From: Longimicrobiales bacterium
Lineage (GTDB): Bacteria > Gemmatimonadota > Gemmatimonadetes > Longimicrobiales > Gaopeijiaceae
DNA length: 64,000 nt
Assembly: GCA_965219445.1 (NCBI GenBank)
Contig: CBDCNQ010000002.1
Coordinates: 352,001 to 416,000, forward strand
Direction: 5' to 3'
The notes beneath the pieces are model-generated. The model made no database searches, had not been told where the DNA came from, and saw only the letters and a list, made by a program, of their open reading frames with translations. The translations under genes were made by a program, and so were the position numbers. This document shows, piece by piece, positions 31,856 to 53,528 of the stretch; the stretch's first letter is position 1, and each line of letters begins with the position of its first letter.

Positions 31856-32046
31856 AGCAACCCTTCCTCGCTCAGTTCCGTGATCAGACGCAGGATCCGA
31901 TTCGTAGGCCTGCCTTTCATCGGCGCGTGGTTCTCAAGGTCCCATTTGAGAACGAGGGTGCCGTCGCGATAGACGTGAACGTGGTGGGGGCTATGGTCAC
32001 CTTTCCAAGTCACGAATACGAAGCCGCCTCGTCGGATCTTGCCCAT
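31852..32046 (-). CDS. DUF4160-like putative toxin
   Basis: DHSPHHVHV motif; own promoter TTGCTT-17-TAGCAT just upstream of ATG. Confidence 0.65.
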   Translation of the reverse strand: MGKIRRGGFVFVTWKGDHSPHHVHVYRDGTLVLKWDLENHAPMKGRPTNRILRLITELSEEGLL

Positions 32047-32106
32047 GTGATATGCTACCACCTACGGTAACACTAAGCAAGATTGCCTCGCACGTTGGGG
32101 GCTGCT

Positions 32107-32201
32107 GTATAACGGATCTGCGATTCTGCTGCGCGGCTAATGTGGTGACCGCAAGCGAAGCGCGCGAGCCTGATGTCTACCGCGACTGCAGCAATCGCTT
32201 G
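32107..32201 (+). repeat. attC site interrupted by IS110 at the crossover
   Basis: R'' GTATAAC, arms GCGATTCTGCTG/CAGCAATCGC, then IS110 left end. Confidence 0.85.
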
Positions 32202-33411
32202 ATACTCATGCAGGCCCCCTCCTGGACCTCTCAGAGAGAGGACGGAATGATCAGAGCGCGACGCTCGATCCATCCAACCCAGGAGGGGAACCATGCGCTT
32301 CTACACCGGCCAGCATCGATACTACTGTGGCATCGACCTTCACGCTCGCACGCTCTACCTCTGTATCCTGGACTGCCAGGGCAAGATACGACTACACAAG
32401 AGGCTACGCTGTGAGCGCGAGGCACTGCTTCGCGCCCTCGAGCCGTACCGTTCAGATCTCGTCGTGGGCAGCGAGTGCATCTTCTGCTGGTACTGGCTCG
32501 CCGATCTCTGTGCTCGCGAGCAGATCCCCTTCGTGCTCGGCCATGCGCTCTACATGAAGGCGATCCATGGGGCCAAGGCGAAGAACGACCACATCGACTC
32601 CCACAAGACGGCGGTGCTGCTGCGCGGGGGTGCCTTTCCGGTGGCCTACGTCTATCCCCCGCAGATGCGAGCCACGCGCGATGTGCTCCGGCGCCGACTC
32701 TACTTCGTACGCAAGCGCGGCGAACTCCTCGCCCACGTCCGTAACACCTTTCATCAGTACAACCTGCCTCGGCCCTCCGGTCAGCTCCTCTATAAGAAGA
32801 ACCGCGAGGGACTGGCCCAGGCATTCGACGATCGCATGATCCAGAGGACCATCGAGGCGGATCTCGCACTCGCGGATCGCTTCGACCCCGTGATCCGAGA
32901 ACTCGAGCGCACGATCGAAGAAGAAGCCCGCGTCCACGACCACGACACGCTGCAGCGGCTGCGAACCATCCCCGGCATTGGCCGCATCCGGGACAGCGCT
33001 TTCAGGGACCCGCTATGCGCCGCCTTGCGCCATGTCGTCAGGTGCGACGAGTACAAGCCCTCCCGCCGTAGGAGTCGGCCAACCTCTCCGGGCTCCGTGC
33101 ACCGGTCCGCTTCTTCGACGATCCGCAGCTTGTACGACGGAGCGAACCGCCGGCGCAGCGGCCTATCTACCACCTCCGAGTCCGCAGGAGCTGCCGCGCT
33201 TCGCTTACCGTCCCAGGTTGGTGGGGCTATTCCATTCTCTTTCATTCTCTCTCGGTGTCTCAGCATCCTCGGTTTCTCTGCCTTCGCCCTACTCTAATTC
33301 CTTAGCTGCTCCGTGTCTCACGTAAGTTGGCAGAGAGGGCTCCGCTTACGGCGCCGCTCCGCGGCGCGGAGGAGGGAACTTGCGCGCTCTTGACTCCGGG
33401 GGCCTGATAAG
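32202..33411 (+). mobile_element. IS110 (attC-targeting) copy, internally replaced by IS3 fragment 32989-33339
   Basis: Left end ATACTCATGCAGGCCCCC, tnp 5' part, right end ...GGGGGCCTGATAAG. Confidence 0.85.
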
Positions 33412-33458
33412 TGTTAGAGCGCTTGCCCTCGATGGTTATACCATGGTATTATAACGGT

Positions 33459-33695
33459 ATGAAAACAGCGATATCACTACCAGATGACCTCTTTGAGTCT
33501 GCCGACGCCCTCGCCGAGCGGTTAGGGTTGTCCCGAAGCGAGCTCTACGCAACGGCCGTTGCGGAGTACCTAGCCAAACACCGTGATGAGGATGTGACAG
33601 GCAGACTGAACGATGTCTTCGCCGACGAACCCAGCGGTATCGAGCCGGCGTTAAGGGCAGCCCAGGCACGAAGTGTGAGTTCGGCTGAGTGGTAG
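33459..33695 (+). CDS. CopG/RHH antitoxin
   Basis: MKTAISLPDDLF..A..LGLSRSELY; palindromic operator overlapping -10. Confidence 0.8.
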   Translation: MKTAISLPDDLFESADALAERLGLSRSELYATAVAEYLAKHRDEDVTGRLNDVFADEPSGIEPALRAAQARSVSSAEW

Positions 33696-34033
33696 TACAA
33701 CGTCGTGAGGTGTGGTGGGCCGATCTCGAGGAGCCTCGCGGATCTGAGCCCGGCTTTCGCCGCCCGATCCTCGTCGTCCAAGCCGACTCCTTCAATCGCA
33801 GCAGACTGCGGACAGTGCTCGGAGTAGTACTGACGTCGAACACGCGGCTCCTTGACGCCCCTGGCAACGTCCTTCTCCCGGCCCGGAATAGCGGCCTGCC
33901 CAAAGACTCGGTGGCCAACGTCACGCAGATCGTGACCCTTGATGAGGCCTACCTGTCGGAGCGAACGGGGCGCTTACCCCCTAAGCTGATGGCCCATGTC
34001 GATGCGGGTCTGAAGCTAGTCCTTGATCTATAG
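33689..34033 (+). CDS. PemK/MazF family toxin
   Basis: VWWADL.EPRGSEPG.RRP.LVVQ.D.FN, DSVANV.QI. Confidence 0.9.
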   Translation: MVVQRREVWWADLEEPRGSEPGFRRPILVVQADSFNRSRLRTVLGVVLTSNTRLLDAPGNVLLPARNSGLPKDSVANVTQIVTLDEAYLSERTGRLPPKLMAHVDAGLKLVLDL

Positions 34034-34045
34034 CCCGACCAAGCG

Positions 34046-34140
34046 CTCTAACGGATCTGCGATTCTGCTGCGCGAACAAGATGCCGACCGCAAGCGAAGC
34101 GCGCGAGCCTCAAGTCTACCGCGACAGTAGCAATCGCTTG
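34046..34140 (+). repeat. attC of the MazEF-like cassette (33413-34140), IS110-interrupted
   Basis: CAAGCGCTCTAAC is the exact complement of cassette start GTTAGAGCGCTTG. Confidence 0.9.
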
Positions 34141-34255
34141 ATACTCATGCAGGCCCCCTCCTGGACCTCTCAGAGAGAGGACGGAATGATCAGAGCGCGA
34201 CGCTCGATCCATCCAACCCAGGAGGGGAACCATGCGCTTCTACACCGGCCAGCAT
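34141..34255 (+). mobile_element. IS110 left-end fragment
   Basis: Matches the left end at 32202. Confidence 0.9.
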
Positions 34256-35312
34256 CCCTCTCTCATGAAGGCGACCCAGGAGCTAGCCAAGCACGTAGGG
34301 GTGAAGCCCGCGTGCGATGCGCTCAGGGTGCCGCGAGCCACGTTCTACCGTCGTCGGAGTGCATCGACCGGGCATCAGCAGCCCCGCCCGACCCCCGCCC
34401 GGGCCTTAAGTGAGAGGGAGCGGGACAAGATTTTCGACACCCTGTGTTCGGAGCGGTTCGTGGACCGGTCCCCAGCCGAGGTGGTGGCGACGCTGCTCGA
34501 CGAGGACGTCTACCTGTGCAGCGAGCGTACGATGTATCGCGTTCTGGCTTCCCAGGTGCCGGTTCAGGAGCGTCGAGCGCAGCGGAGTCATCCCAAATAC
34601 CAGAAGCCCGAGTTGATGGCGAGGGGCCCGAACCAGGTCTGGTCCTGGGATATCACCCGGCTGCTGGGGCCGAAGAAGTGGAGTTACTTCTACCTCTACG
34701 TGATCCTGGACATCTTCAGCCGCTACGTCGTGGGATGGATGGTGGCGGATCGGGAGAACTCTGCCCTGGCCAGCCGGCTGATCCAGCAGAGTTGCTTGAA
34801 GCATGGCGTCCAGCCCCACCTCCTGACCCTGCATTCCGATCGAGGGGCTCCGATGACGAGCCAATGCACGGCTCAACTACTCGCCGATCTCGGCGTGACC
34901 CGCTCGTTGGGCCGACCCCAGGTCTCGGATGACAATCCGTTCTCCGAGGCTCAGTTCAAGACCTTGAAGTACCATCCCTCGTTTCCCGGCCGGTTCGGGG
35001 ATCAGGGGCAAGCCAAGACCTTCTGTCGCTCGTTCTTCCGTTGGTATAATGCCGAGCACCGCCATGGCGGCATCTCGATGCTGACCCCCGAACAGGTCCA
35101 CTTCGGTCACGCCGATCGGATCATCGCCTGCAGGAAGGCCGTGCTCCGTGAGGCATGGGCCGCTCATCCCGAGCGCTTCGTCTCCGGTGAGCCGAAGCCT
35201 AAACCACTCCCGGAGGCCGTCTGGATCAATCCTCCCACCCCATCCCTCACGACACAGGAGATTGCTCTCTAATTGATTTCCAAGAGTGTCTCACTGGCGT
35301 TGACAGGTTCCG
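34256..35312 (+). mobile_element. IS3 derivative lacking orfA; orfB fused in frame to the IS110 start codon (34232-35272)
   Basis: Left tip CCCTCTCT joined to CATGAAG; intact right end. Confidence 0.85.
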
Positions 35313-35766
35313 GTTCCGTACCAGCTCCGACAAGCACTGCGTCCTCACCTTCGTCGATCGTAAGACGGGCTACGTGATGATCGGCAAGCTCGAGGCTCGT
35401 ACCGTCGAGGCTACGAACCGTCGAGCCGTTCGTCTGATCAAGACTGCCGCTCGCCCCACTCACACCATCACGGCCGACAACGGAACTGAGTTCCACGGCT
35501 ATGGGGCGATCGAAGCAGAAACCGGATCGAAATTCTACTTCGCCGCGCCCTACCACTCTTGGGAAAGGGGGACCAGCGAGAACACGAACGGTCTGATTCG
35601 TCAGTACCTACCGAAGCGTACCAGCATGGCTCACATCACCCAGCATGCTTGCAACCGCATCGCTCACAAACTCAACAACCGACCCAGGAAGCGTTTAGGC
35701 TATCGCACCCCCGAGGAATGCTATGTACAGATCTAGCTCGTGTTGCACTTCAAAGTTGATCCGAAG
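35313..35766 (+). mobile_element. IS30-family 3' fragment ending at a cassette start
   Basis: ITADNGTEF, PYHSWERGTSENTNG; same right end as 31341. Confidence 0.88.
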
Positions 35767-35836
35767 TAGCCCTTCCCTCCAGGCTCGGGATTCAGTATAC
35801 GTATAGTACGTTTTGAAACATACGTAGGAAGGACCC

Positions 35837-36067
35837 ATGGCAAAGACCAAGCTCACGCTGTCAGTTGACAAGGCTCTGATTGTGCGAGCTAAACGGTTCT
35901 CGCGGAGGAACGACACCACAGTCTCGGAGTTGGTCTCAAGGTTCTTGGCGTCGCTGGACGATGAGCGAGGTCGGGCGGCGCCTATCACATCGCGTCTACG
36001 TGGAGTCCTCCCTGCTGCCGTCAAACGCGAGGAACATCGGCGGCATCTTGAAGTGAAGCACGGGTGA
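35837..36067 (+). CDS. DUF6364-like RHH antitoxin
   Basis: KTKLTLSVD..LI.RAK..S.....VSELV; coupled to the PIN gene. Confidence 0.75.
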   Translation: MAKTKLTLSVDKALIVRAKRFSRRNDTTVSELVSRFLASLDDERGRAAPITSRLRGVLPAAVKREEHRRHLEVKHG

Positions 36068-36480
36068 AACGGATTCTTCTCGACATCAACGTGGTTCTCG
36101 ACATCTTAGCCGACCGGAAACCCTTCGCTGAGGAGGCTGCCGCGCTCTTCGGAGTGATCGAAACCGGAGGCGTGCAAGGCTTCGTCGCGGCCCATACGGT
36201 GACCACGCTTCACTATCTCCTGGCGAAGCACCTGGGGAAGGCGAGGACACGACGGGTGCTGATGGACCTGCTTCAGTTGCTCCGAGTGGTGGAGGTAGAC
36301 GAGGATCGTTTGCGGCATGCACTGGGGCTGAACTGGACGGACTTCGAGGACGCGGTTCAGGCAGCGTGCGCGGAGAAGGCTGAGGCAGACTACCTCGTGA
36401 CCCGGGACAAGGCCGGGTTCAAGAAGTCTTCAGTACGACCAGTAACGCCAAGCGAGTTGCTTGCTTTGATCCAGGAGTAG
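36064..36480 (+). CDS. PIN domain toxin
   Basis: LLDINVVLD, DFEDAVQ, LVTRD. Confidence 0.88.
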   Translation: MKRILLDINVVLDILADRKPFAEEAAALFGVIETGGVQGFVAAHTVTTLHYLLAKHLGKARTRRVLMDLLQLLRVVEVDEDRLRHALGLNWTDFEDAVQAACAEKAEADYLVTRDKAGFKKSSVRPVTPSELLALIQE

Positions 36481-36493
36481 ATGGATCGGGGCT

Positions 36494-36593
36494 ACCTAAC
36501 GGATCTGCATTTCTGCTGCGCGTCAATCTGCACTCCGCGCACATTGTGCGCGACTCTAACGCCGACCGCGACTGCAGCAAATGCTTGTTAGAA
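36494..36593 (+). repeat. Intact attC site (100 bp)
   Basis: R'' ACCTAAC, arms GCATTTCTGCTG/CAGCAAATGC, R' GTTAGAA. Confidence 0.9.
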
Positions 36594-36657
36594 CGCGCTG
36601 CGGCGGCACTCATCAGCCTCCGTAGTGAGTCAGACGCAGGGGGCTGGCCAGGCGCGA

Positions 36658-37755
36658 CTATAGTGAATCCGCGAACCCCTTGATATCTCGAATAGTGGCC
36701 GCGAACACTTCCGGGAGCGCTTTTCGGAAAACCATATCGCCAGAGTGGCAGGTGCCATTGACGGTCCGGCTGTAGACGTTTACGCCAGCCGCCATGAGCA
36801 TCTGGTGGTACTTCAGTCCCTCGTCCCGTAAAGGGTCTAGCTCATTGACCGATATGACATGCGGGGGCAGACCTTGCAGGTCCTGAGGCTCGGCGAAATA
36901 TGGCCAGCAAAGCGGATTGTGATCGTTCTCGTGCGCGGGGTCATATGCGACGGCACACGCGCCCAACATGCTGCAGTTGAGGAAGTAATCGTCGTTTTCG
37001 TAAAGGGATGGCAGCTCCGAGATCTTGTTGGCCCATGCGTTGGAGATGTACGGACATAGCGCGTAGGCGCCGTCGATCTGTTCGAGCTTGTCATCCTTCT
37101 TGGCCTTTAGAGTCATGGCCAACGAGAGGTTGCCGCCACCGGACTCACCGGACACGACAATCGTGGAAATCCCAAGCGCGGCTTTGTTATCGAACGTCCA
37201 CTGTAGCCCGCTCATGCAATCGTTGAGTCCTGCAGGGAACGGGTGGTTGCCGAGCTTCCCTGCGCCGTTCCGGAACTCCACACCCACCACCACCATTCCG
37301 ACAGCGGAAAGCTCGTCGCGCCAGCGCGTGGCGAGAGAGCCGGCGGCCTCCAGAAGGACCATGGCACCTCCGTGCATATGATACACACACGGTAGCGGAC
37401 CAGAAGCATTCTGGGGCTTGTGCATAAAGAGGCTGATGTCGTTGTCGTCCACTCCCTTTATCACTTCGGTACGCCTCTCCACACTCTCAATCGGTGGTAA
37501 GTCCGTGAGCCAAACTTTGAAGAGGTCTTCGTAGCCCGGCTCCGCCACGGCAATGAACTCGAGTATTTCCTCGAGTTGCGATTCAGCGGTGACCGGTGCG
37601 GGTGGTGGGGCCTCGTCGAAGCCAAATTCGGCGAGGGCGGCCACCATTCGAGGGTGGGCACGGGGATCAGTCTTTAAGACGCTGTCAGGATCGGCGAGTC
37701 GGCCTGGCGAGAAGGGCTGATCGGTTTTGGAACGGACTTGGCCGGACATAGTCAT
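36658..37755 (-). CDS. Alpha/beta hydrolase (HSL-type esterase), reverse-oriented cassette gene
   Basis: HGGA, GESGGG, DPLRDEG, H; cassette ends GTTAGAACGCGC / GCGCGTTCTAAC. Confidence 0.88.
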   Translation of the reverse strand: MTMSGQVRSKTDQPFSPGRLADPDSVLKTDPRAHPRMVAALAEFGFDEAPPPAPVTAESQLEEILEFIAVAEPGYEDLFKVWLTDLPPIESVERRTEVIKGVDDNDISLFMHKPQNASGPLPCVYHMHGGAMVLLEAAGSLATRWRDELSAVGMVVVGVEFRNGAGKLGNHPFPAGLNDCMSGLQWTFDNKAALGISTIVVSGESGGGNLSLAMTLKAKKDDKLEQIDGAYALCPYISNAWANKISELPSLYENDDYFLNCSMLGACAVAYDPAHENDHNPLCWPYFAEPQDLQGLPPHVISVNELDPLRDEGLKYHQMLMAAGVNVYSRTVNGTCHSGDMVFRKALPEVFAATIRDIKGFADSL

Positions 37756-37790
37756 GGTTCTGCCTCTCCTGTTCTGAACCTCTTGGCGCG

Positions 37791-37885
37791 TTCTAACGTC
37801 TCTGCGATTCTGCTGCGCGGCTAATGTGGTGACCGCACGCGAAGCGCGCGAGCCTGATGTCTACCGCGACAGTAGCAATCGCTTG
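37791..37885 (+). repeat. attC site, IS110-interrupted
   Basis: R'' TTCTAAC ... AATCGCTTG; its R' GTTAGAG is displaced to 41049. Confidence 0.9.
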
Positions 37886-37975
37886 ATACTCATGCAGGCC
37901 CCCTCCTGGACCTCTCAGAGAGAGGACGGAATGATCAGAGCGCGACGCTCGATCCATCCAACCCAGGAGGGGAAC

Positions 37976-39542
37976 CGGAACCTGTCAACGCCAGTGAGAC
38001 ACTCTTGGAAATCAATTAGAGAGCAATCTCCTGTGTCGTGAGGGATGGGGTGGGAGGATTGATCCAGACGGCCTCCGGGAGTGGTTTAGGCTTCGGCTCA
38101 CCGGAGACGAAGCGCTCGGGATGAGCGGCCCATGCCTCACGGAGCACGGCCTTCCTGCAGGCGATGATCCGATCGGCGTGACCGAAGTGGACCTGTTCGG
38201 GGGTCAGCATCGAGATGCCGCCATGGCGGTGCTCGGCATTATACCAACGGAAGAACGAGCGACAGAAGGTCTTGGCTTGCCCCTGATCCCCGAACCGGCC
38301 GGGAAACGAGGGATGGTACTTCAAGGTCTTGAACTGAGCCTCGGAGAACGGATTGTCATCCGAGACCTGGGGTCGGCCCAACGAGCGGGTCACGCCGAGA
38401 TCGGCGAGTAGTTGAGCCGTGCATTGGCTCGTCATCGGAGCCCCTCGATCGGAATGCAGGGTCAGGAGGTGGGGCTGGACGCCATGCTTCAAGCAACTCT
38501 GCTGGATCAGCCGGCTGGCCAGGGCAGAGTTCTCCCGATCCGCCACCATCCATCCCACGACGTAGCGGCTGAAGATGTCCAGGATCACGTAGAGGTAGAA
38601 GTAACTCCACTTCTTCGGCCCCAGCAGCCGGGTGATATCCCAGGACCAGACCTGGTTCGGGCCCCTCGCCATCAACTCGGGCTTCTGGTATTTGGGATGA
38701 CTCCGCTGCGCTCGACGCTCCTGAACCGGCACCTGGGAAGCCAGAACGCGATACATCGTACGCTCGCTGCACAGGTAGACGTCCTCGTCGAGCAGCGTCG
38801 CCACCACCTCGGCTGGGGACCGGTCCACGAACCGCTCCGAACACAGGGTGTCGAAAATCTTGTCCCGCTCCCTCTCACTTAAGGCCCGGGCGGGGGTCGG
38901 GCGGGGCTGCTGATGCCCGGTCGATGCACTCCGACGACGGTAGAACGTGGCTCGCGGCACCCTGAGCGCATCGCACGCGGGCTTCACCCCTACGTGCTTG
39001 GCTAGCTCCTGGGTCGCCTTCATGAGTTCGTCCCGTCCTCGAGGCTCAATCCCAGCAGCCCTGCAACTTTTCCCTGGACGTCGATGATCAAGTGCGCCTT
39101 CTGGAGCTCCTTCTCGAGGCGAGTGTTCTCGCGCTCCAGCTTGCGCACCTTCTCCTCCAGCGGATTGCGCTCGCGCTTACGGCCTCGTTTCTTCGACAGC
39201 GCTTTCAGGGACCCGCTATGCGCCGCCTTGCGCCATGTCGTCAGGTGCGACGAGTACAAGCCCTCCCGCCGTAGGAGTCGGCCAACCTCTCCGGGCTCCG
39301 TGCACCGGTCCGCTTCTTCGACGATCCGCAGCTTGTACGACGGAGCGAACCGCCGGCGCAGCGGCCTATCTACCACCTCCGAGTCCGCAGGAGCTGCCGC
39401 GCTTCGCTTACCGTCCCAGGTTGGTGGGGCTATTCCATTCTCTTTCATTCTCTCTCGGTGTCTCAGCATCCTCGGTTTCTCTGCCTTCGCCCTACTCTAA
39501 TTCCTTAGCTGCTCCGTGTCTCACGTAAGTTGGCAGAGAGGG
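37976..39542 (-). mobile_element. IS3-family element, 1567 bp, 3-bp TSD AAC
   Basis: Matches 29492-31058; empty site known from other IS110 copies. Confidence 0.93.
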
Positions 39543-39546
39543 AACC

Positions 39547-40593
39547 ATGCGCTTCTACACCGGCCAGCATCGATACTACTGTGGCATCGACCTTCACGCT
39601 CGCACGCTCTACCTCTGTATCCTGGACTGCCAGGGCAAGATACGACTACACAAGAGGCTACGCTGTGAGCGCGAGGCACTGCTTCGCGCCCTCGAGCCGT
39701 ACCGTTCAGATCTCGTCGTGGGCAGCGAGTGCATCTTCTGCTGGTACTGGCTCGCCGATCTCTGTGCTCGCGAGCAGATCCCCTTCGTGCTCGGCCATGC
39801 GCTCTACATGAAGGCGATCCATGGGGCCAAGGCGAAGAACGACCACATCGACTCCCACAAGACGGCGGTGCTGCTGCGCGGGGGTGCCTTTCCGGTGGCC
39901 TACGTCTATCCCCCGCAGATGCGAGCCACGCGCGATGTGCTCCGGCGCCGACTCTACTTCGTACGCAAGCGCGGCGAACTCCTCGCCCACGTCCGTAACA
40001 CCTTTCATCAGTACAACCTGCCTCGGCCCTCCGGTCAGCTCCTCTATAAGAAGAACCGCGAGGGACTGGCCCAGGCATTCGACGATCGCATGATCCAGAG
40101 GACCATCGAGGCGGATCTCGCACTCGCGGATCGCTTCGACCCCGTGATCCGAGAACTCGAGCGCACGATCGAAGAAGAAGCCCGCGTCCACGACCACGAC
40201 ACGCTGCAGCGGCTGCGAACCATCCCCGGCATTGGCCGCATCCTGGCCCTCACGCTGCTCTATGAGATCCACGACATCGCTCGCTTCAGCACGGTGCAGC
40301 GCTTCAGCTCCTACTGTCGACTCGCCAAGCCCGAGCACCGCAGTGCAGGCAAGCGAGTCGGCAGCGGAGGAGCCAAGATCGGCAACGCACACCTCAAGTG
40401 GGCGTTCAGTGAGGCGGCCGTCCTCTTCCTTCGCGACAACGTCCGCGGCCAGGCCCATCTCAAGAGGCTCGCGCGCCGCCACGGCAAGGGCAAGGCGCTC
40501 AGCATCCTTGCGGCTCGCATCGGACGCGCCACCTACTTCATGCTCAAGAACCGGGAGGCATTCGACACCGAACGCTTCTATACACGCACCTGA
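39547..40593 (+). CDS. IS110 family recombinase
   Basis: GIDLH, GSEC, KNDHIDS (DEDD); IPGIG, RSAGK, GNAHLK. Confidence 0.95.
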   Translation: MRFYTGQHRYYCGIDLHARTLYLCILDCQGKIRLHKRLRCEREALLRALEPYRSDLVVGSECIFCWYWLADLCAREQIPFVLGHALYMKAIHGAKAKNDHIDSHKTAVLLRGGAFPVAYVYPPQMRATRDVLRRRLYFVRKRGELLAHVRNTFHQYNLPRPSGQLLYKKNREGLAQAFDDRMIQRTIEADLALADRFDPVIRELERTIEEEARVHDHDTLQRLRTIPGIGRILALTLLYEIHDIARFSTVQRFSSYCRLAKPEHRSAGKRVGSGGAKIGNAHLKWAFSEAAVLFLRDNVRGQAHLKRLARRHGKGKALSILAARIGRATYFMLKNREAFDTERFYTRT

Positions 40594-41020
40594 CGGGGAG
40601 GGGAGGTTGTGAGCCTTGATTTCTAACTCGAGCGGGCACCGGATGCCTGACAGCCGCCTCGCTTGATTGGACGCCTCCTCCCGCTCCCCACACATCGAGT
40701 CGGTCTCACTCAGGACTCTGCCCCTCACCCGAGCCCGGAGCTAACTGGCCCGCCGCCTCACGGCCCGAGCCTGCTCTCCTTGAATGGAGTCGGACGGCAC
40801 GAGGGCACAGATGAATTTCTAGGTCGTAGCGGCCAGCAGGCTCCTGCTCCGCCGCCTTCGAGCTCGCCTCGAGGGAGATCCGGCGGTTAAACCTCGATAA
40901 GTGTTTGGTGCAGAGCTCACTGCGCTCGCACCTGCTAACGGAAACCAAGTCAGAGGACTCAGCGACCGATGCTCACTCCGCTTACGGCGCCGCTCCGCAG
41001 CGCGGAGGAGGGAACTTGCG
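40594..41020 (+). ncRNA. Predicted bridge/seek RNA of the attC-targeting IS1111
   Basis: Stem-flanked TTCTAAC (40621) and TCGCTTG (40659) match the target halves; GATAAGTG (40896) matches the donor end. Confidence 0.72.
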
Positions 41021-41088
41021 CGCTCTTGACTCCGGGGGCCTGATAAGTGTTAGAGCGCAGCCGACCGAGCCCGAAGTACCCTACGCCA

Positions 41089-41117
41089 TTGACGGATATA
41101 CGCCAATGACGTATCAT
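41089..41117 (+). promoter_or_regulatory. Sigma-70 promoter of the TA cassette
   Basis: TTGACG-17-TATCAT with overlapping imperfect palindrome; ATG 5 nt downstream. Confidence 0.65.
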
Positions 41118-41122
41118 AGCTC

Positions 41123-41440
41123 ATGGTCATCAAGGAGACCTCCATTTTCACCAAGCAGGTGAACAAGCTATTGGACGCGGAGTCCTATCGATTCTTGCAG
41201 CTTCGCCTCGTCGCGGATCCTGAGGCCGGAGATCTCATGCGTGGGACCGGTGGCCTGCGGAAGATTCGGTGGCAGGGGTCTGGTCGCGGAAAACGAGGAG
41301 GTGTCAGGGTGATCTATTATTGGGCCGCGAATCATGACGTCGTTCTGATGTTGCTGATGTACGGAAAGAATGAGCGAGATGACCTCTCTGCCGAACAGAG
41401 CAAGGTGTTGGTCGCTCTTGTGAAGGAGGAGTTCAAATGA
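41123..41440 (+). CDS. RelE/HigB-like toxin
   Basis: PEAGDLMRGTGGLRKIRW..GRGKRGGVRVIYY..YGKNE. Confidence 0.88.
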   Translation: MVIKETSIFTKQVNKLLDAESYRFLQLRLVADPEAGDLMRGTGGLRKIRWQGSGRGKRGGVRVIYYWAANHDVVLMLLMYGKNERDDLSAEQSKVLVALVKEEFK

Positions 41441-41724
41441 GGGACGAGCTTTTCAGCGAACTCGAAGAAAGTCTGAAGGAAGGGGGAGCCATCCTCCGAG
41501 GCGAGCTGGATCCATCCCGCCAGGTAGCCTTTGAGGCTCCAAACGTAGCTGAGATTCGGGAGGAATACGGATTATCTCAGACCAAGTTTGCGGCTCTGCT
41601 TGGGATCAGCGTCCGCACGCTACAGAATTGGGAGCAGGGTCGCCGCCACCCCCAGGGACCTGCGAGAATCTTGTTGAGGGTGGCAGCGAAGCACCCTCGG
41701 GCGGTCCTCGACTCGGTAAAATGA
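41437..41724 (+). CDS. HigA-like HTH antitoxin
   Basis: LSQTKFAALLGISVRTLQNWEQGRR.P.GPA. Confidence 0.88.
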   Translation: MRDELFSELEESLKEGGAILRGELDPSRQVAFEAPNVAEIREEYGLSQTKFAALLGISVRTLQNWEQGRRHPQGPARILLRVAAKHPRAVLDSVK

Positions 41725-41755
41725 CCGGGCCAAAGCACGAGATCGCTTACCTGCG

Positions 41756-41850
41756 CTCTAACGGACTTGCGATTCTGCTGCGCGTCCAAAATGCCGACCG
41801 GAAGCGAAGCGCGCGAGCCTGATGTCTAACGCGACAGGAGCAATCGCTTG
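41756..41850 (+). repeat. attC of the RelE/HigA cassette, IS110-interrupted
   Basis: CTGCGCTCTAAC complements cassette start GTTAGAGCGCAG. Confidence 0.9.
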
Positions 41851-42724
41851 ATACTCATGCAGGCCCCCTCCTGGACCTCTCAGAGAGAGGACGGAATGAT
41901 CAGAGCGCGACGCTCGATCCATCCAACCCAGGAGGGGAACCATGCGCTTCTACACCGGCCAGCATCGATACTACTGTGGCATCGACCTTCACGCTCGCAC
42001 GCTCTACCTCTGTATCCTGGACTGCCAGGGCAAGATACGACTACACAAGAGGCTACGCTGTGAGCGCGAGGCACTGCTTCGCGCCCTCGAGCCGTACCGT
42101 TCAGATCTCGTCGTGGGCAGCGAGTGCATCTTCTGCTGGTACTGGCTCGCCGATCTCTGTGCTCGCGAGCAGATCCCCTTCGTGCTCGGCCATGCGCTCT
42201 ACATGAAGGCGATCCATGGGGCCAAGGCGAAGAACGACCACATCGACTCCCACAAGACGGCGGTGCTGCTGCGCGGGGGTGCCTTTCCGGTGGCCTACGT
42301 CTATCCCCCGCAGATGCGAGCCACGCGCGATGTGCTCCGGCGCCGACTCTACTTCGTACGCAAGCGCGGCGAACTCCTCGCCCACGTCCGTAACACCTTT
42401 CATCAGTACAACCTGCCTCGGCCCTCCGGTCAGCTCCTCTATAAGAAGAACCGCGAGGGACTGGCCCAGGCATTCGACGATCGCATGATCCAGAGGACCA
42501 TCGAGGCGGATCTCGCACTCGCGGATCGCTTCGACCCCGTGATCCGAGAACTCGAGCGCACGATCGAAGAAGAAGCCCGCGTCCACGACCACGACACGCT
42601 GCAGCGGCTGCGAACCATCCCCGGCATTGGCCGCATCCTGGCCCTCACGCTGCTCTATGAGATCCACGACATCGCTCGCTTCAGCACGGTGCAGCGCTTC
42701 AGCTCCTACTGTCGACTCGCCAAG
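41851..42724 (+). mobile_element. IS110 copy truncated by IS3 insertions
   Basis: Same left end and tnp up to YCRLAK. Confidence 0.9.
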
Positions 42725-44324
42725 CGGAACCTGTCAACAGCGATGAGACACGGGGAGTCATAGATTAGTGAGCAGGCTGCGGTGTCGGAGCCGCAGCTGG
42801 TGGATTGATCCAGACCTCCGTTGGGAGAGGCTGGGGCGTGGGGATTCCCTGCACGAAGCGTTCAGGGTGTTCGGACCACGCCTGCTGGAGAGTGCGCTCA
42901 CGCTGGGCGAGCACGTCACGGGCTCGGTCGTGATGGACATCAGCCGGGGTGAGCATCGCGATTCCGCCGTGGCGATGCTCATGGTTGTACCAAGGGAAGA
43001 AGGATCGGCAGAAGTCGATCGCCGCGCCGATGTCGGCGAAGCGTCCGGGGAAGTTGGGGTAGTATTTGACGGTCTTGAAGTGCGCCTCCGAGAAGGGGTT
43101 GTCGTCGCTGACCCGGGGACGGCCGAGCGAGCGGGTGATCCCGAGGTCGGCGAGCAGCTGGGCCGTGCACTTGCTGGTCATCGGGGCCCCGCGGTCGGAG
43201 TGCAGGGTCAGCGTCTCGGGCTGGACATCCTGCTTGAGGCAGCTCTCCTGGATGAGCCGGCAGGCGAGCGCGGAGTTCTCGCGGTCGGCGACCATCCATC
43301 CGACCACGTACCGGCTGAAGATGTCGATGAGGACGTAGAGGTAGAAGTACGACCACTTCTCGGGTCCGAGAAGCCGGGTGATGTCCCACGACCAGGTCTG
43401 GTTCGGTGCCGTGGCCACGAGCTGGGGCTTCGTGTAGGCGGGATGCGTGAGCTGACTGCGCCGCTCACGCACGGGGTGATCCTCCTGGAGGATCCTGTAC
43501 ATCGTGCGTTCTGAGCAGAGGTACTCGCCCTCGTCGAGGAGGGTGGCCACAACCTCTGCGGGAGATCGGTCGACGAAGCGCGGGCAAGCGAGGGTCTCAC
43601 GCACCTTCTCGCGCTCGGATTCATCGAGAGCCCGGGCGGGGCGCTGCCTGGGCTGCTGGTGCCCGGTCGTGGGCTTACGGCGCCGGTAGAACGTGGCACG
43701 CGCCACACCCAGTGCTCGGCACGCCGGCGCGGCGCCGACCTCCCGAGCCAGGGAGGCAGCGGCCATCAGGAGTTCTTTCCGCTGTCGAAGCTCAACCCCA
43801 GCAGCCCGGCAACTTTTCCCTGGACTTCCAGGATCGTTTCCGCCGTGGCAAGCTGCTTCTCGAGCCGGGCCACTTCGGCCTCGAGCTCATCCACCCTCTT
43901 CTGGAGGGAGTTGCGGCGGGCCGGCTTGCGGCCCCGCCGCTTCGGCGTCAGGCCCTTCAGAGAGCCCTCGCGCCGTGCCTTTCGCCATGCCGTGAGATGA
44001 GAGCTGTACAGACCCTCCCGACGCACGATCCGCCCAACCTCGCCGGGCTCCGAGCACCGGTCGGTCTCTTCCAGGATCCTGAGCTTGTACTCCGCGGTGA
44101 ACTGCCGGCGGGTCGGCTTGGCCACCACCTCCGGATCCCGAGCCCGATTCCGCTCGGCGACTCGGGCCCTGGCGGCCTCGTCGCTACGCTCCTCGCCCCC
44201 CAGGGCCCGAGCACCCACACCCATACCAATCATCGTATCTCTCCCCTCTACCATCGCCATCCACCTCCGCCCCCTTCAGTAATTCCAAAGGTGCCAGGTG
44301 TCTCACTGATATTGGCAGAGAGGG
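42725..44324 (-). mobile_element. Second, divergent IS3-family element (orfA 43766-44260, orfB 42765-43766), TSD AAG
   Basis: DDE motifs; ends CGGAACCTGTCAA and TTGGCAGAGAGGG. Confidence 0.92.
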
Positions 44325-44330
44325 AAGCCC

Positions 44331-45897
44331 CGGAACCTGTCAACGCCAGTGAGACACTCTTGGAAATCAATTAGAGAGCAATCTCCTGTGTCGTGAGGGA
44401 TGGGGTGGGAGGATTGATCCAGACGGCCTCCGGGAGTGGTTTAGGCTTCGGCTCACCGGAGACGAAGCGCTCGGGATGAGCGGCCCATGCCTCACGGAGC
44501 ACGGCCTTCCTGCAGGCGATGATCCGATCGGCGTGACCGAAGTGGACCTGTTCGGGGGTCAGCATCGAGATGCCGCCATGGCGGTGCTCGGCATTATACC
44601 AACGGAAGAACGAGCGACAGAAGGTCTTGGCTTGCCCCTGATCCCCGAACCGGCCGGGAAACGAGGGATGGTACTTCAAGGTCTTGAACTGAGCCTCGGA
44701 GAACGGATTGTCATCCGAGACCTGGGGTCGGCCCAACGAGCGGGTCACGCCGAGATCGGCGAGTAGTTGAGCCGTGCATTGGCTCGTCATCGGAGCCCCT
44801 CGATCGGAATGCAGGGTCAGGAGGTGGGGCTGGACGCCATGCTTCAAGCAACTCTGCTGGATCAGCCGGCTGGCCAGGGCAGAGTTCTCCCGATCCGCCA
44901 CCATCCATCCCACGACGTAGCGGCTGAAGATGTCCAGGATCACGTAGAGGTAGAAGTAACTCCACTTCTTCGGCCCCAGCAGCCGGGTGATATCCCAGGA
45001 CCAGACCTGGTTCGGGCCCCTCGCCATCAACTCGGGCTTCTGGTATTTGGGATGACTCCGCTGCGCTCGACGCTCCTGAACCGGCACCTGGGAAGCCAGA
45101 ACGCGATACATCGTACGCTCGCTGCACAGGTAGACGTCCTCGTCGAGCAGCGTCGCCACCACCTCGGCTGGGGACCGGTCCACGAACCGCTCCGAACACA
45201 GGGTGTCGAAAATCTTGTCCCGCTCCCTCTCACTTAAGGCCCGGGCGGGGGTCGGGCGGGGCTGCTGATGCCCGGTCGATGCACTCCGACGACGGTAGAA
45301 CGTGGCTCGCGGCACCCTGAGCGCATCGCACGCGGGCTTCACCCCTACGTGCTTGGCTAGCTCCTGGGTCGCCTTCATGAGTTCGTCCCGTCCTCGAGGC
45401 TCAATCCCAGCAGCCCTGCAACTTTTCCCTGGACGTCGATGATCAAGTGCGCCTTCTGGAGCTCCTTCTCGAGGCGAGTGTTCTCGCGCTCCAGCTTGCG
45501 CACCTTCTCCTCCAGCGGATTGCGCTCGCGCTTACGGCCTCGTTTCTTCGACAGCGCTTTCAGGGACCCGCTATGCGCCGCCTTGCGCCATGTCGTCAGG
45601 TGCGACGAGTACAAGCCCTCCCGCCGTAGGAGTCGGCCAACCTCTCCGGGCTCCGTGCACCGGTCCGCTTCTTCGACGATCCGCAGCTTGTACGACGGAG
45701 CGAACCGCCGGCGCAGCGGCCTATCTACCACCTCCGAGTCCGCAGGAGCTGCCGCGCTTCGCTTACCGTCCCAGGTTGGTGGGGCTATTCCATTCTCTTT
45801 CATTCTCTCTCGGTGTCTCAGCATCCTCGGTTTCTCTGCCTTCGCCCTACTCTAATTCCTTAGCTGCTCCGTGTCTCACGTAAGTTGGCAGAGAGGG
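44331..45897 (-). mobile_element. IS3-family element, 1567 bp
   Basis: Third full-length matching copy. Confidence 0.93.
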
Positions 45898-46349
45898 GTT
45901 TCAAGGTATGCAGCGAACTCCGGCGTAACGAACTCTTGGACATCCGGCCAAAGGCGCCACAGAGGGTGGTCTTCGCGGAACGTGCCCCACCCGAGGGATT
46001 CCAACGCCTCCGCATCGAGGAGTCCTTCCTCAACCTGTAGGAATGTCGTCTCGTAAAGCCGAAGAATCGCGACGAAGTAGTTCGTCACCAGGAGACGATC
46101 CGACGGGTCGAACTCAGACCATGACGCCGAGTCCGCCATGAGAACGCGCCCCCATGCATCACTCAAGTCGCGGTTGGTTGCCGCCGCCATCCAAAGTTCA
46201 GTCACCGCGATCCCGAGGTCCTGATAGGCCGCCGCCCGCGCGGCCACCGCGTTCTGTCGAAGTTCCATTCCGATGAAGACCAGCGACAGCACGACACCGA
46301 TGAGGGCTATCGCTTCAGCAATCACTCGAACAGGAGGTCTTGGCTTCAT
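45898..46349 (-). CDS. Hypothetical membrane-anchored protein, probable first cassette, 3'-truncated by IS3
   Basis: AEAIALIGVVLSLVFIGMELRQN; preceded by GTTAGAT. Confidence 0.6.
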
Positions 46350-46570: not shown

Positions 46571-47566
46571 CTAGTCCCGGTCCTCCGGTCGATCAAGTGG
46601 GCTGCGCATGCCCAGTCCGGCATCGGTGATGGCTTGCACGTAGATCATCGTCGTGCGGATGTCTTTGTGACCCATGAGCCTCTGCACCGAACGGGCGTCG
46701 TATCCGGCCCGCAGCATCTGAGTAGCGAAGGATCTGCGAAGGGTGTGACAGGTGACGGGCTTGGTAATGCCGGATGCTCGGGCCGCGTCCTTCATCCGTC
46801 TTTGCATGGCTGTCGGGTTGAGGTGGTACCGACCCTTCCTCCTAGTAGCGGGATCCCGCGACCATCGGCTCGCGGGGAATAGGAACTGCCACGACAGGTC
46901 GTAACCCGCTTGTGGATCCTTGCGATCCAGTGCACCCGGCAGTTGAGCCCAACCGCCTCCTCGGCGCCTGTCCTCCCGGTGCAGTTCCTTTACAAGAGAC
47001 ACCTGGCGGCGTAGTGCCGAACCGAGCCGCTCGGGCAGCATGACCCACCGGTCCTTGGCACCCTTCCCGTCCCGTATGGCGATTTGCAGCAGGTCGAAGT
47101 CGATGTCCTTAATCCGCAGTTGATGACACTCCGTCAGGCGGGCGCCCGTGCCATACATCAGCGAACCCAGTAGTCGATATTTGCCGGACAGATGGCCGAG
47201 CACGAGCCGCACCTGCCCGTGAGATAACACGGTCGGTATTCGCTGCGGCTCTCGGGCCCGAGGCATACCTTCAAGATCGTCGCGGCCCAGGACCTCCCTG
47301 AAGAAAAACGACAGCGCCGACGCGGCCTGATTGCGACTCTTTGGCGCCAACCTCCGCTCCTCCGTGAGAACGCTCAAGAACTGCTCCACATGCCGTCTGG
47401 TGAGATCCTCCACCGGAACACCGGGATGGGCGTCCGTGAATCGCCGGAGCCATCGCGCGTACACTTCTATCGTCCTATTCCGGTAACCCCTCTGTCTCAG
47501 GAGGCGGCGAGTGGTCGCGAGCGCTCGCTCGACATCGGGTCCCGGGCGCATGCTGAACGATCCCAC
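46571..47566 (-). CDS. intI: Integron integrase
   Basis: NQA.SAL.FFF..VL, YGTGAR..E, GKGAKDR, IntI-specific insert LPGALDRK.P.A....WQFLFP, HTLR, GH.DIRTTMIY. Confidence 0.95.
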   Translation of the reverse strand: MGSFSMRPGPDVERALATTRRLLRQRGYRNRTIEVYARWLRRFTDAHPGVPVEDLTRRHVEQFLSVLTEERRLAPKSRNQAASALSFFFREVLGRDDLEGMPRAREPQRIPTVLSHGQVRLVLGHLSGKYRLLGSLMYGTGARLTECHQLRIKDIDFDLLQIAIRDGKGAKDRWVMLPERLGSALRRQVSLVKELHREDRRRGGGWAQLPGALDRKDPQAGYDLSWQFLFPASRWSRDPATRRKGRYHLNPTAMQRRMKDAARASGITKPVTCHTLRRSFATQMLRAGYDARSVQRLMGHKDIRTTMIYVQAITDAGLGMRSPLDRPEDRD

Positions 47567-53451: not shown

Positions 53452-53528
53452 GTCTAACGGATCTGCGATTCTGCTGCGCGGCTAATGTGGTGACCGCAAG
53501 CGCAGCGCGCGAGCCTGATGTCTACCGC
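53452..53528 (+). repeat. attC, right part deleted
   Basis: GTCTAACGGATCTGCGATTCTGCTGCGCGGCTAATG..., nearly identical to 32107. Confidence 0.85.

Follow-up and report, generated by a model that had tools for sequence, protein, structure and literature searches.

The window analysed here, a stretch of 64,000 nucleotides from a Longimicrobiales bacterium, carries an element of the IS110 family inside the cassette array of an integron (Table 1). Its recombinase scores 189.7 bits against the model NF033542, above the cut-off of 140; the acidic residues are D15, E61, D99 and D102, and S266 aligns with the catalytic-serine loop of IS621. With a DEDD RuvC-like domain and a C-terminal Tnp domain bearing the catalytic serine, the protein belongs to the IS110 family in the broad sense. 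The stretch singled out by an earlier sequence-only reading of the window begins 1 base past the recombinase stop codon, in the downstream non-coding end of the element.

Table 1. Features of the element and of the surrounding integron, in window coordinates
Feature	Position	Strand	Remarks
Interrupted attC, larger part (spacer, L boxes, R')	37790..37885	-	Ends at the left junction
IS110 element, left end	37886..37976	+	Starts ATACTC; ribosome-binding site; also seen at the genome's 8 left junctions
IS3-like element (rve domain)	37977..39540 (end point approximate)	-	Between left end and start codon in this copy
IS110-family recombinase, 348 aa	39547..40593	+	PF01548 and PF02371 matches
Loop 1, predicted main target-binding loop	40595..40689	+	Covariation with flanks; compensatory stem changes
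Loop 2, predicted auxiliary target-type loop	40719..40807	+	Closing stem ends 3 nt before the donor guide
Loop 3, predicted donor-binding loop	40811..40908	+	Covariation with both element ends
Right end	41026..41049	+	-35 box TTGACT at 41026; inverted repeat; core TG 41048-41049
R'' box of the interrupted attC	41049..41056	-	Right flank, TTAGAGC on +
RelE/HTH toxin-antitoxin cassette, attC interrupted by the element	41123..41724	+	Genes antisense to the cassette array
Integron integrase IntI	46571..47566	-	TIGR02249, 345.5 bits, above cut-off

The element and its insertion in attC

The non-coding ends of the element measure about 455-456 nt on the right and 97 nt on the left, the RNA-coding end lying downstream of the gene. 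They carry a perfect 9-bp inverted repeat (37895-37903 and 41034-41042), which lies 9 nt in from the left terminus and 7 nt in from the right one, core included. The IS3-like element that has entered this copy has GGAACC at both of its borders. Five full-length copies of the gene are present in the genome, together with several fragments. All eight left junctions read TCGCTTG followed by ATACTC, and the five right junctions read GATAAGTG followed by TTAG (four) or TTAT (one). In the window the left flank TCGCTTG occupies 37879-37885, with the shared core TG at 37884-37885, and a homologous attC arm folds into a hairpin. TG is common to both junctions, and the joined ends give a -10-like GATACT 17 bp after the -35 box TTGACT; this spacing suggests that joining of the ends at TG would form a junction promoter. 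The circle joint was not seen in the contigs of four sequencing runs. The empty form of the attC is present in four contigs of run X4, where the attC arm continues into an intact R'' box (consensus agreement 0.66).

A candidate attI R box lies beyond the 3' end of IntI, at about 46385 on the minus strand, which indicates that the cassette array reads on the minus strand. The annotated genes beside relatives of the element run in the opposite direction to the element. Because IntI, the candidate attI and the gene directions at relatives together place the cassettes on the minus strand, the element is inserted antisense in the attC, at its R'' end, on the bottom strand. The R' crossover was dropped as a candidate target, since these same observations put the array on the other strand. 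Under the strict filter used for calling attC sites at relatives, an attC-like far end was present in 38 of 87 long flanks.

The array itself (window 32000-46000) is full of fragments of this element, near 32293, 33340, 34232 and 41942. These fragments are cut by IS3-like elements, one end of which has more than 20 matches in the genome. The attC sites at 37790-37885 and 41755-41850 form one family, whose R'-side spacer (8-9 nt) is longer than the R''-side one, and a further attC-like site near 53455 ends in the apparent right end of a related IS110 element. IntI points towards the candidate attI and the array, an inverted-integrase layout.

The predicted three-loop RNA and its distribution

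The guide RNA predicted for the right end has three loops for reading DNA where two are usual, and the middle one is a conserved look-alike of the first. In loop 1, GAGCC at 40611 precedes the guide TTCTAAC (40621-40627), which would pair with the right flank, and the second guide, TCGCTTG (40659-40665), is identical to the left flank, here and at all eight left junctions of the genome. This guide is followed by ATTGGA, whose AT (40666-40667) is handshake-like in that the left end opens with the same two bases; the whole is enclosed by a long stem (40595-40615 with 40673-40689). Loop 2 repeats this plan with GAGCC at 40731, the guides AGCTAAC (40739-40745) and CTCCTTG (40776-40782) and a closing stem formed by TGCCCCTC (40719-40726) and GAGGGCA (40801-40807). 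The AATGG that follows its TTG (40783-40787) is the source of the likeness to loop 1 in this region; it is a subclade-specific 5-nt insertion, and insertions of this kind are present in 12 of 141 aligned ends and absent from 119. In loop 3, the guide ATGAATTTC (40811-40819) is set against the left end, GATAAGTG (40896-40903) equals the right end, and the handshake-like TT equals the first two bases of the right flank. Loop 2 adjoins the donor loop, and loop 1 forms a free-standing stem 29 nt upstream.

A pattern of the target-type module, built post hoc from the sequence itself, has two matches in the 455-nt end (0 of 5000 dinucleotide shuffles) and nine in the whole genome (4.56 Mb), all within copies of this element. 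Compensatory changes were found at six of the seven predicted pairs of the loop-2 outer stem (56 sequences), one pair being double-changed in 11, and at six of the 24 pairs of the loop-1 outer stem (13 sequences). Single-sequence folding of the modules was unremarkable (z -0.22 and -0.52), and an Rfam search of the window returned a tRNA alone, with no match over the loops. Pairing of the two loop-2 guides with each other (GGAG/CTCC here) was considered and rejected, as by eye it is not kept in homologues and it is absent from the consensus structure.

Homologous loci were drawn from genomes, metagenomes and plasmids, giving 215 records with downstream sequence, of which we aligned the 141 distinct ends that reach the donor guide, leaving out truncated ones. 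Two target-type loops are present in 140 of these 141 non-coding ends. The AC and TG cores are kept in both loops in 122 ends by automatic call, and the remaining 19 were judged by eye, with both modules in 18 and a single target loop in L010. Fifty-nine of the ends came from a scan with the loop-2 pattern and are therefore a biased sample; among the other 82, both loops are present in 81. In a sister clade whose proteins are 28-34% identical, all 25 aligned ends contain both loops and the donor loop; they come from 30 loci, of which five were set aside: a main-clade member and four more distant elements that differ in layout. The predicted three-loop architecture is solid and clade-wide. Recorded cultured hosts of the lineage include Alteromonas, Pseudoalteromonas and Catenovulum, and for the sister clade Paraburkholderia. 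Viral contigs yielded seven candidate stretches, none of them confirmed, and phage records a single distant match (31%). A loose pattern also proposed 'three-module' ends in 21 records, which were false matches among those viewed.

Several ends deserve separate mention. Downstream of position 2487, L010 carries a natural variant with a single target loop, in which the 5' half of loop 1 is joined to the 3' side of loop 2 and the donor loop, and its left flank does not match the guide. In L002 (2545-3160) the final approximately 150 nt of the right end are tandemly duplicated. The duplication starts at the DNA that encodes the donor guide, a stretch resembling the right junction, and suggests that the element can recombine with its own guide-coding DNA. 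Downstream of the transposase in L136 and L144, TCAC replaces TAAC in both loops, a concerted change, and the right flank of L144 still begins with TT despite TCAC in the loops. In the sister clade, many elements (L314-L321, L341) are inserted at a site of the GAYYTG/ACCCC type.

What the loops read

Covariation among the relatives shows loop 1 to be the predicted selector of the landing site and loop 3 the loop predicted to read the element's own ends. Loop 1 covaries with the left flanks (z 8.8, n=45) and the right flanks (z 7.1, n=72), and still does so when each element cluster contributes a single site (z 7.0 and 4.3, respectively); the pattern parser behind these flank tests, for loops 1 and 2 alike, misread a few rows. 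Over 132 sites, representing 75 clusters and including one misparsed record (from L043), the summed log-likelihood was +97.8 for loop 1 against -36.0 for loop 2, with 65 sites favouring loop 1, 19 favouring loop 2 and 48 tied. Among the closest relatives, 17 of the 18 distinct left flanks end in GCTTG, as in loop 1, and one in CCTTG, as in loop 2, nine rows of more distant elements being left out of the count. The donor loop covaries with the left end (z 7.2, n=56) and the right end (z 8.0, n=64). In the permutation tests each cluster counts as independent and deep relatedness stays in, so that the z and p values obtained from them are overstated.

The sequence-only reading had proposed two tandem target-like loops followed by a separate donor-matching segment, a departure from the norm of one target loop and one donor loop. 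All the motifs that it quoted are in place, and the covariation of loop 3 with both ends bears out the donor segment, so that the departure from the norm stands.

The dinucleotides next to the core are highly regular. AT follows TTG in loop 1 in 109 of 113 guide sets, and the left end begins with AT in all 91 cases, the profile used to locate these ends being biased towards AT. TT stands in the donor loop in 112 of 113 guide sets, and the right flank begins with TT in 109 of 111. In the sister clade the loop-1 handshake pair follows the left end at both bases in 12 of 13 cases. By analogy, these AT and TT dinucleotides would behave like the handshake guides of IS621.

Loop 2 is shown by comparison of the homologues to be of the target type and is predicted to read core-proximal DNA. 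The entropy of its variable guide positions is as high as in loop 1, contrary to what would be expected of the invariant loop that the sequence-only reading had named as one alternative. The other alternative named there, pairing with the donor, is likewise contradicted: loop 2 does not covary with the element ends (z -1.0 and -0.4), which rules it out as a donor loop. In the flank test applied to loop 1, loop 2 gave z 2.7 on the left and 1.7 on the right; with one site per cluster the values were 3.1 and 0.2 (n=38 for the right), and at sites that mismatch loop 1 they were 1.4 and -0.6. In the sister clade the left guide of loop 2 covaries both with the flank actually present (z 3.7, n=12) and with the loop-1 guide (z 6.6, n=20), three rows being off by 1-2 nt in this test.

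Within an element, loops 1 and 2 resemble each other (z 6.9). They nevertheless differ in several respects: the first guide of loop 2 is usually one base shorter than that of loop 1 in the alignments, the variable positions of its left guide have a U fraction of 0.39 against 0.21 in loop 1 and 0.17 T in the flanks, and the two left guides are identical in none of 59 cases in the window's clade. In the window's element, the loop-2 left guide matches the occupied flanks at four of seven bases. At the handshake position of loop 2, the first A is kept in 99 of 105 cases and the T is present in 13 of 105, with one extra base; beyond these 105, eight guide sets have a 5-nt insertion there, like that of the window's element. 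In the sister clade a loop-out of 8-26 nt stands there, with no handshake, and the first base matches in three of 13. As loop 2 keeps guide variation, target tracking and an altered scaffold of its own, it is neither a dead copy nor an equal twin of loop 1.

Among approximately 97,000 GTT sites in the genome, the loop-2 target has one match at 13/14 and four at 12/14, none of them occupied. Three of the 12/14 matches are copies of one repeat (G000:C1:211187, C5:478073 and C5:1044338), which probably represents the 3' end of an element of the IS256 type.

The role of loop 2 and comparison with known systems

We tentatively favour a seek-plus-bridge division of labour, to which we give a probability of about 45 per cent: loop 1 would be the seek loop, and loop 2 an auxiliary target-type loop bolted to the donor loop. 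The element would act as an RNA-guided IS110-family recombinase system in which joining of the ends at the TG core creates a promoter; this promoter would drive a transcript of the recombinase and the three-loop RNA, to be processed into units. Loop 1, as its covariation suggests, would pair with both strands around the R'' box of attC, with its AT handshake favouring insertion as in IS621, and loop 3 would read the joined ends, again as covariation suggests. Loop 2 may be an old duplicate of the target loop turned into a specialized helper, one whose first guide is shorter, whose second guide is rich in U and whose 3' side is altered. Most likely, loops 2 and 3 together would form an ordinary two-loop bridge unit working on the existing junctions of the element, at circle formation or at transfer of the second junction, and loop 1 would serve as a built-in 'target-only' seek RNA. 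Loop 2 may in addition direct insertion at a small share of sites.

Three considerations favour this division of labour. In CazIS110-1 a target-loop-only RNA makes up 90% of the bound RNA and cooperates with the full-length bridge RNA (10.1101/2025.10.25.684509); IS1111 elements have short target-matching RNAs and circles that need target flanks (PMC11187229); and here the loop beside the donor loop is loop 2, with loop 1 standing apart. Loop 2 is retained, each time as a single copy on a scaffold of its own, in 140 of 141 ends and in all 25 of the sister clade, which suggests a needed and distinct job. Other observations speak against it. The A kept in loop 2 occupies the handshake position that discriminates donor from target, which favours insertion rather than excision; a guide that matches the occupied flanks at four of seven bases is a poor fit for gripping junctions; and L010 has a single target loop. 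Furthermore, IS621 can excise with its donor loop alone (PMC13626964; 10.64898/2026.08.31.748434), so that a helper target loop need not be required.

An alternative, which the sequence-only reading had raised and which we regard as unlikely, is true dual targeting, with loop 2 as a second, less selective guide for insertion. Such a guide would open a wider set of attC sites to the element, an advantage once loop-1 sites are occupied or after a change of host. A mixture fit over the 132 sites attributes at best about 10% of them to loop 2 (gain 2.65, null 0.73 +/- 0.92; p 0.048 when compared with foreign loop-2 guides), and conditional tests at loop-1-poor sites give the element's own loop 2 a better fit than loops taken from other elements (p 0.015-0.043). 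Individual sites fit loop 2 better (L177 and L044 at 7/7, L285 at 6/7), the kept A is the discriminating handshake base, and no free site in this genome matches loop 1 better than 12/14. However, the signal was not replicated at 10 held-out sites, where loop 1 was better in eight and loop 2 in one (p 0.68); these sites came from 21 new loci after the exclusion of seven without an end, three with loop-2 guides not ending in TTG and one without a usable flank. Moreover, the right guide of loop 2 is without signal at one site per cluster, its sister-clade counterpart has no handshake, and none of the 18 left flanks of the closest relatives equals a loop-2 guide, a result that may be limited by the host attC pool, as no loop-2-type attC was found in the genome. 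A tail test (11 versus 3.5) had its threshold chosen after the data were seen and is inflated by the resemblance of the loops within elements. As a general account of the loop, dual targeting has borderline support from the mixture fit and is undercut by the held-out sites and the closest relatives.

A purely structural loop 2 is in our judgement quite unlikely. It could be where a further recombinase dimer docks, or a spacer by which loop 1 and the donor loop are brought together in one RNA, its guide-like look being a remnant of duplication and sequence exchange. The strong conservation of the loop-2 scaffold and the distal guide bases that match no flanks would fit such a role, and so would the geometry of IS621, in which adjacent loops lie about 80 A apart and the loops come from two RNA molecules (PMC11208158), making a spacer useful. 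On the other hand, the core-proximal bases change in both loops with the target class and the scaffolds are kept separate, which is easier to explain by pairing with DNA, and the guide positions are unpaired in the consensus structure. Very improbable is the view that loop 2 reads another integron site (the R' arm or attI) or that, together with loop 1, it recombines two attC sites in the manner of an RNA-guided integrase. Both loops do spell GTT-containing cores, and target stem-loops matter for ISPpu10 (10.64898/2026.03.19.712850). Yet over 38 of 87 long flanks loop 2 covaries neither with R' (z -0.5) nor with its spacer (z -2.1), the left context of this genome's candidate attI does not match it, and the sister clade keeps loop 2 at sites whose right flanks begin with AC, TC, TG or CC, not with the TT of the attC core. 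In addition, IS621 performs no target-target recombination (PMC11208158). The R' arm and the attI of this genome are thereby largely refuted as loop-2 sites, and with them the suggestion of the sequence-only reading that loop 2 reads a second part of the folded attC.

Within the favoured division of labour between loops 1 and 2, a stronger version is possible though doubtful: a split target loop in a widespread IS110 lineage, in which loop 1 picks the sites and loop 2, with a weak handshake or none, serves exit. If true, the loaded loop would set the direction of recombination, much as a recombination directionality factor does but at the level of RNA. A single RNA could then be given two targets, or be programmed separately for insertion and for removal. 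In IS621 it is handshake pairing that sets the direction of recombination (PMC13626964). More generally, conservation of the third loop across proteins of 28-34% identity implies a conserved function missing from the current model. The layout bears on two questions, how elements whose RNA is geared to insertion manage to excise and why target-only RNAs are so common. It provides genome editing with a naturally occurring multi-guide scaffold, and integron biology with a separate IS110 lineage whose insertions, in many phyla, disrupt attC at R''.

Bridge RNAs in the literature examined have one target loop and one donor loop. Our full-text search for two or multiple target loops, which covered the literature outside subscription papers (among these the original IS1111-attC work), found none, and the searchable supplements of Durrant 2024 gave no match to the motifs of this family. 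The three-loop layout could appear among the 86 bridge-RNA models in figure S12 of 10.64898/2026.10.21.760802.

With IS621 and IS622/ISCro4 (PMC11208160; PMC11208158; PMC13626964; 10.1101/2025.05.14.653916) the element shares a recombinase with DEDD and Tnp domains, internal loops that each hold two guides and a dinucleotide core common to both partners, as well as handshake dinucleotides in target and donor loops and, as far as predicted here, a junction promoter. It differs from them in its three loops, in the position of the RNA downstream of the gene and in its TG core, and protein similarity to the IS621 type is confined to the C-terminal half (E 2.8e-6). The ISGsu4-like IS110 elements (a label taken from a plasmid record) have the three-loop layout and similar ends in the 25 aligned; they are set apart by 28-34% protein identity, other target cores and a loop 2 in which a loop-out of 8-26 nt replaces the handshake.

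The IS1111-attC group (ISKpn4, ISPst6, ISPa25, ISPa21) resembles the element in its downstream non-coding region and antisense insertion near the 5' end of attC (PMC3001079), and in a top-strand match placed 5' of the bottom-strand match (PMC11187229). IS1111 elements, however, have subterminal inverted repeats of 11-13 bp with 7-bp and 3-bp extensions (PMC11187229), in contrast to the 9-bp repeat found here, and their GL-P----S(T)G motif corresponds to RLAKPEHRSAG in our recombinase, which is 23% identical to an IS1111-type transposase bearing that motif. One target-matching pair is given in the available descriptions of IS1111-attC RNAs, against two target-type loops here; the passages of Durrant et al. 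(PMC11208160) on IS1111 RNAs mention multi-loop donor regions and not a second target loop. The element has probably arrived at its attC target independently, the separation from ISKpn4, ISPst6, ISPa25 and ISPa21 being based on their descriptions and on one aligned IS1111-type protein.

Tandem units with two guides bound by a Nop-type domain are also found in TIGR-Tas systems, whose description presents IS110 bridge RNAs as a single two-stem unit (PMC12045711). Our recombinase matches the Tas model NF052498 weakly (33 bits, cut-off 100), and unlike the TIGR arrays of equal repeats, its RNA has two unequal target loops and one donor loop. The likeness to CazIS110-1 lies in the cooperation of a target-only RNA and a full two-loop RNA in transposition; there both RNAs derive from one target loop, whereas the target-only unit described here has its own DNA copy and different guides.
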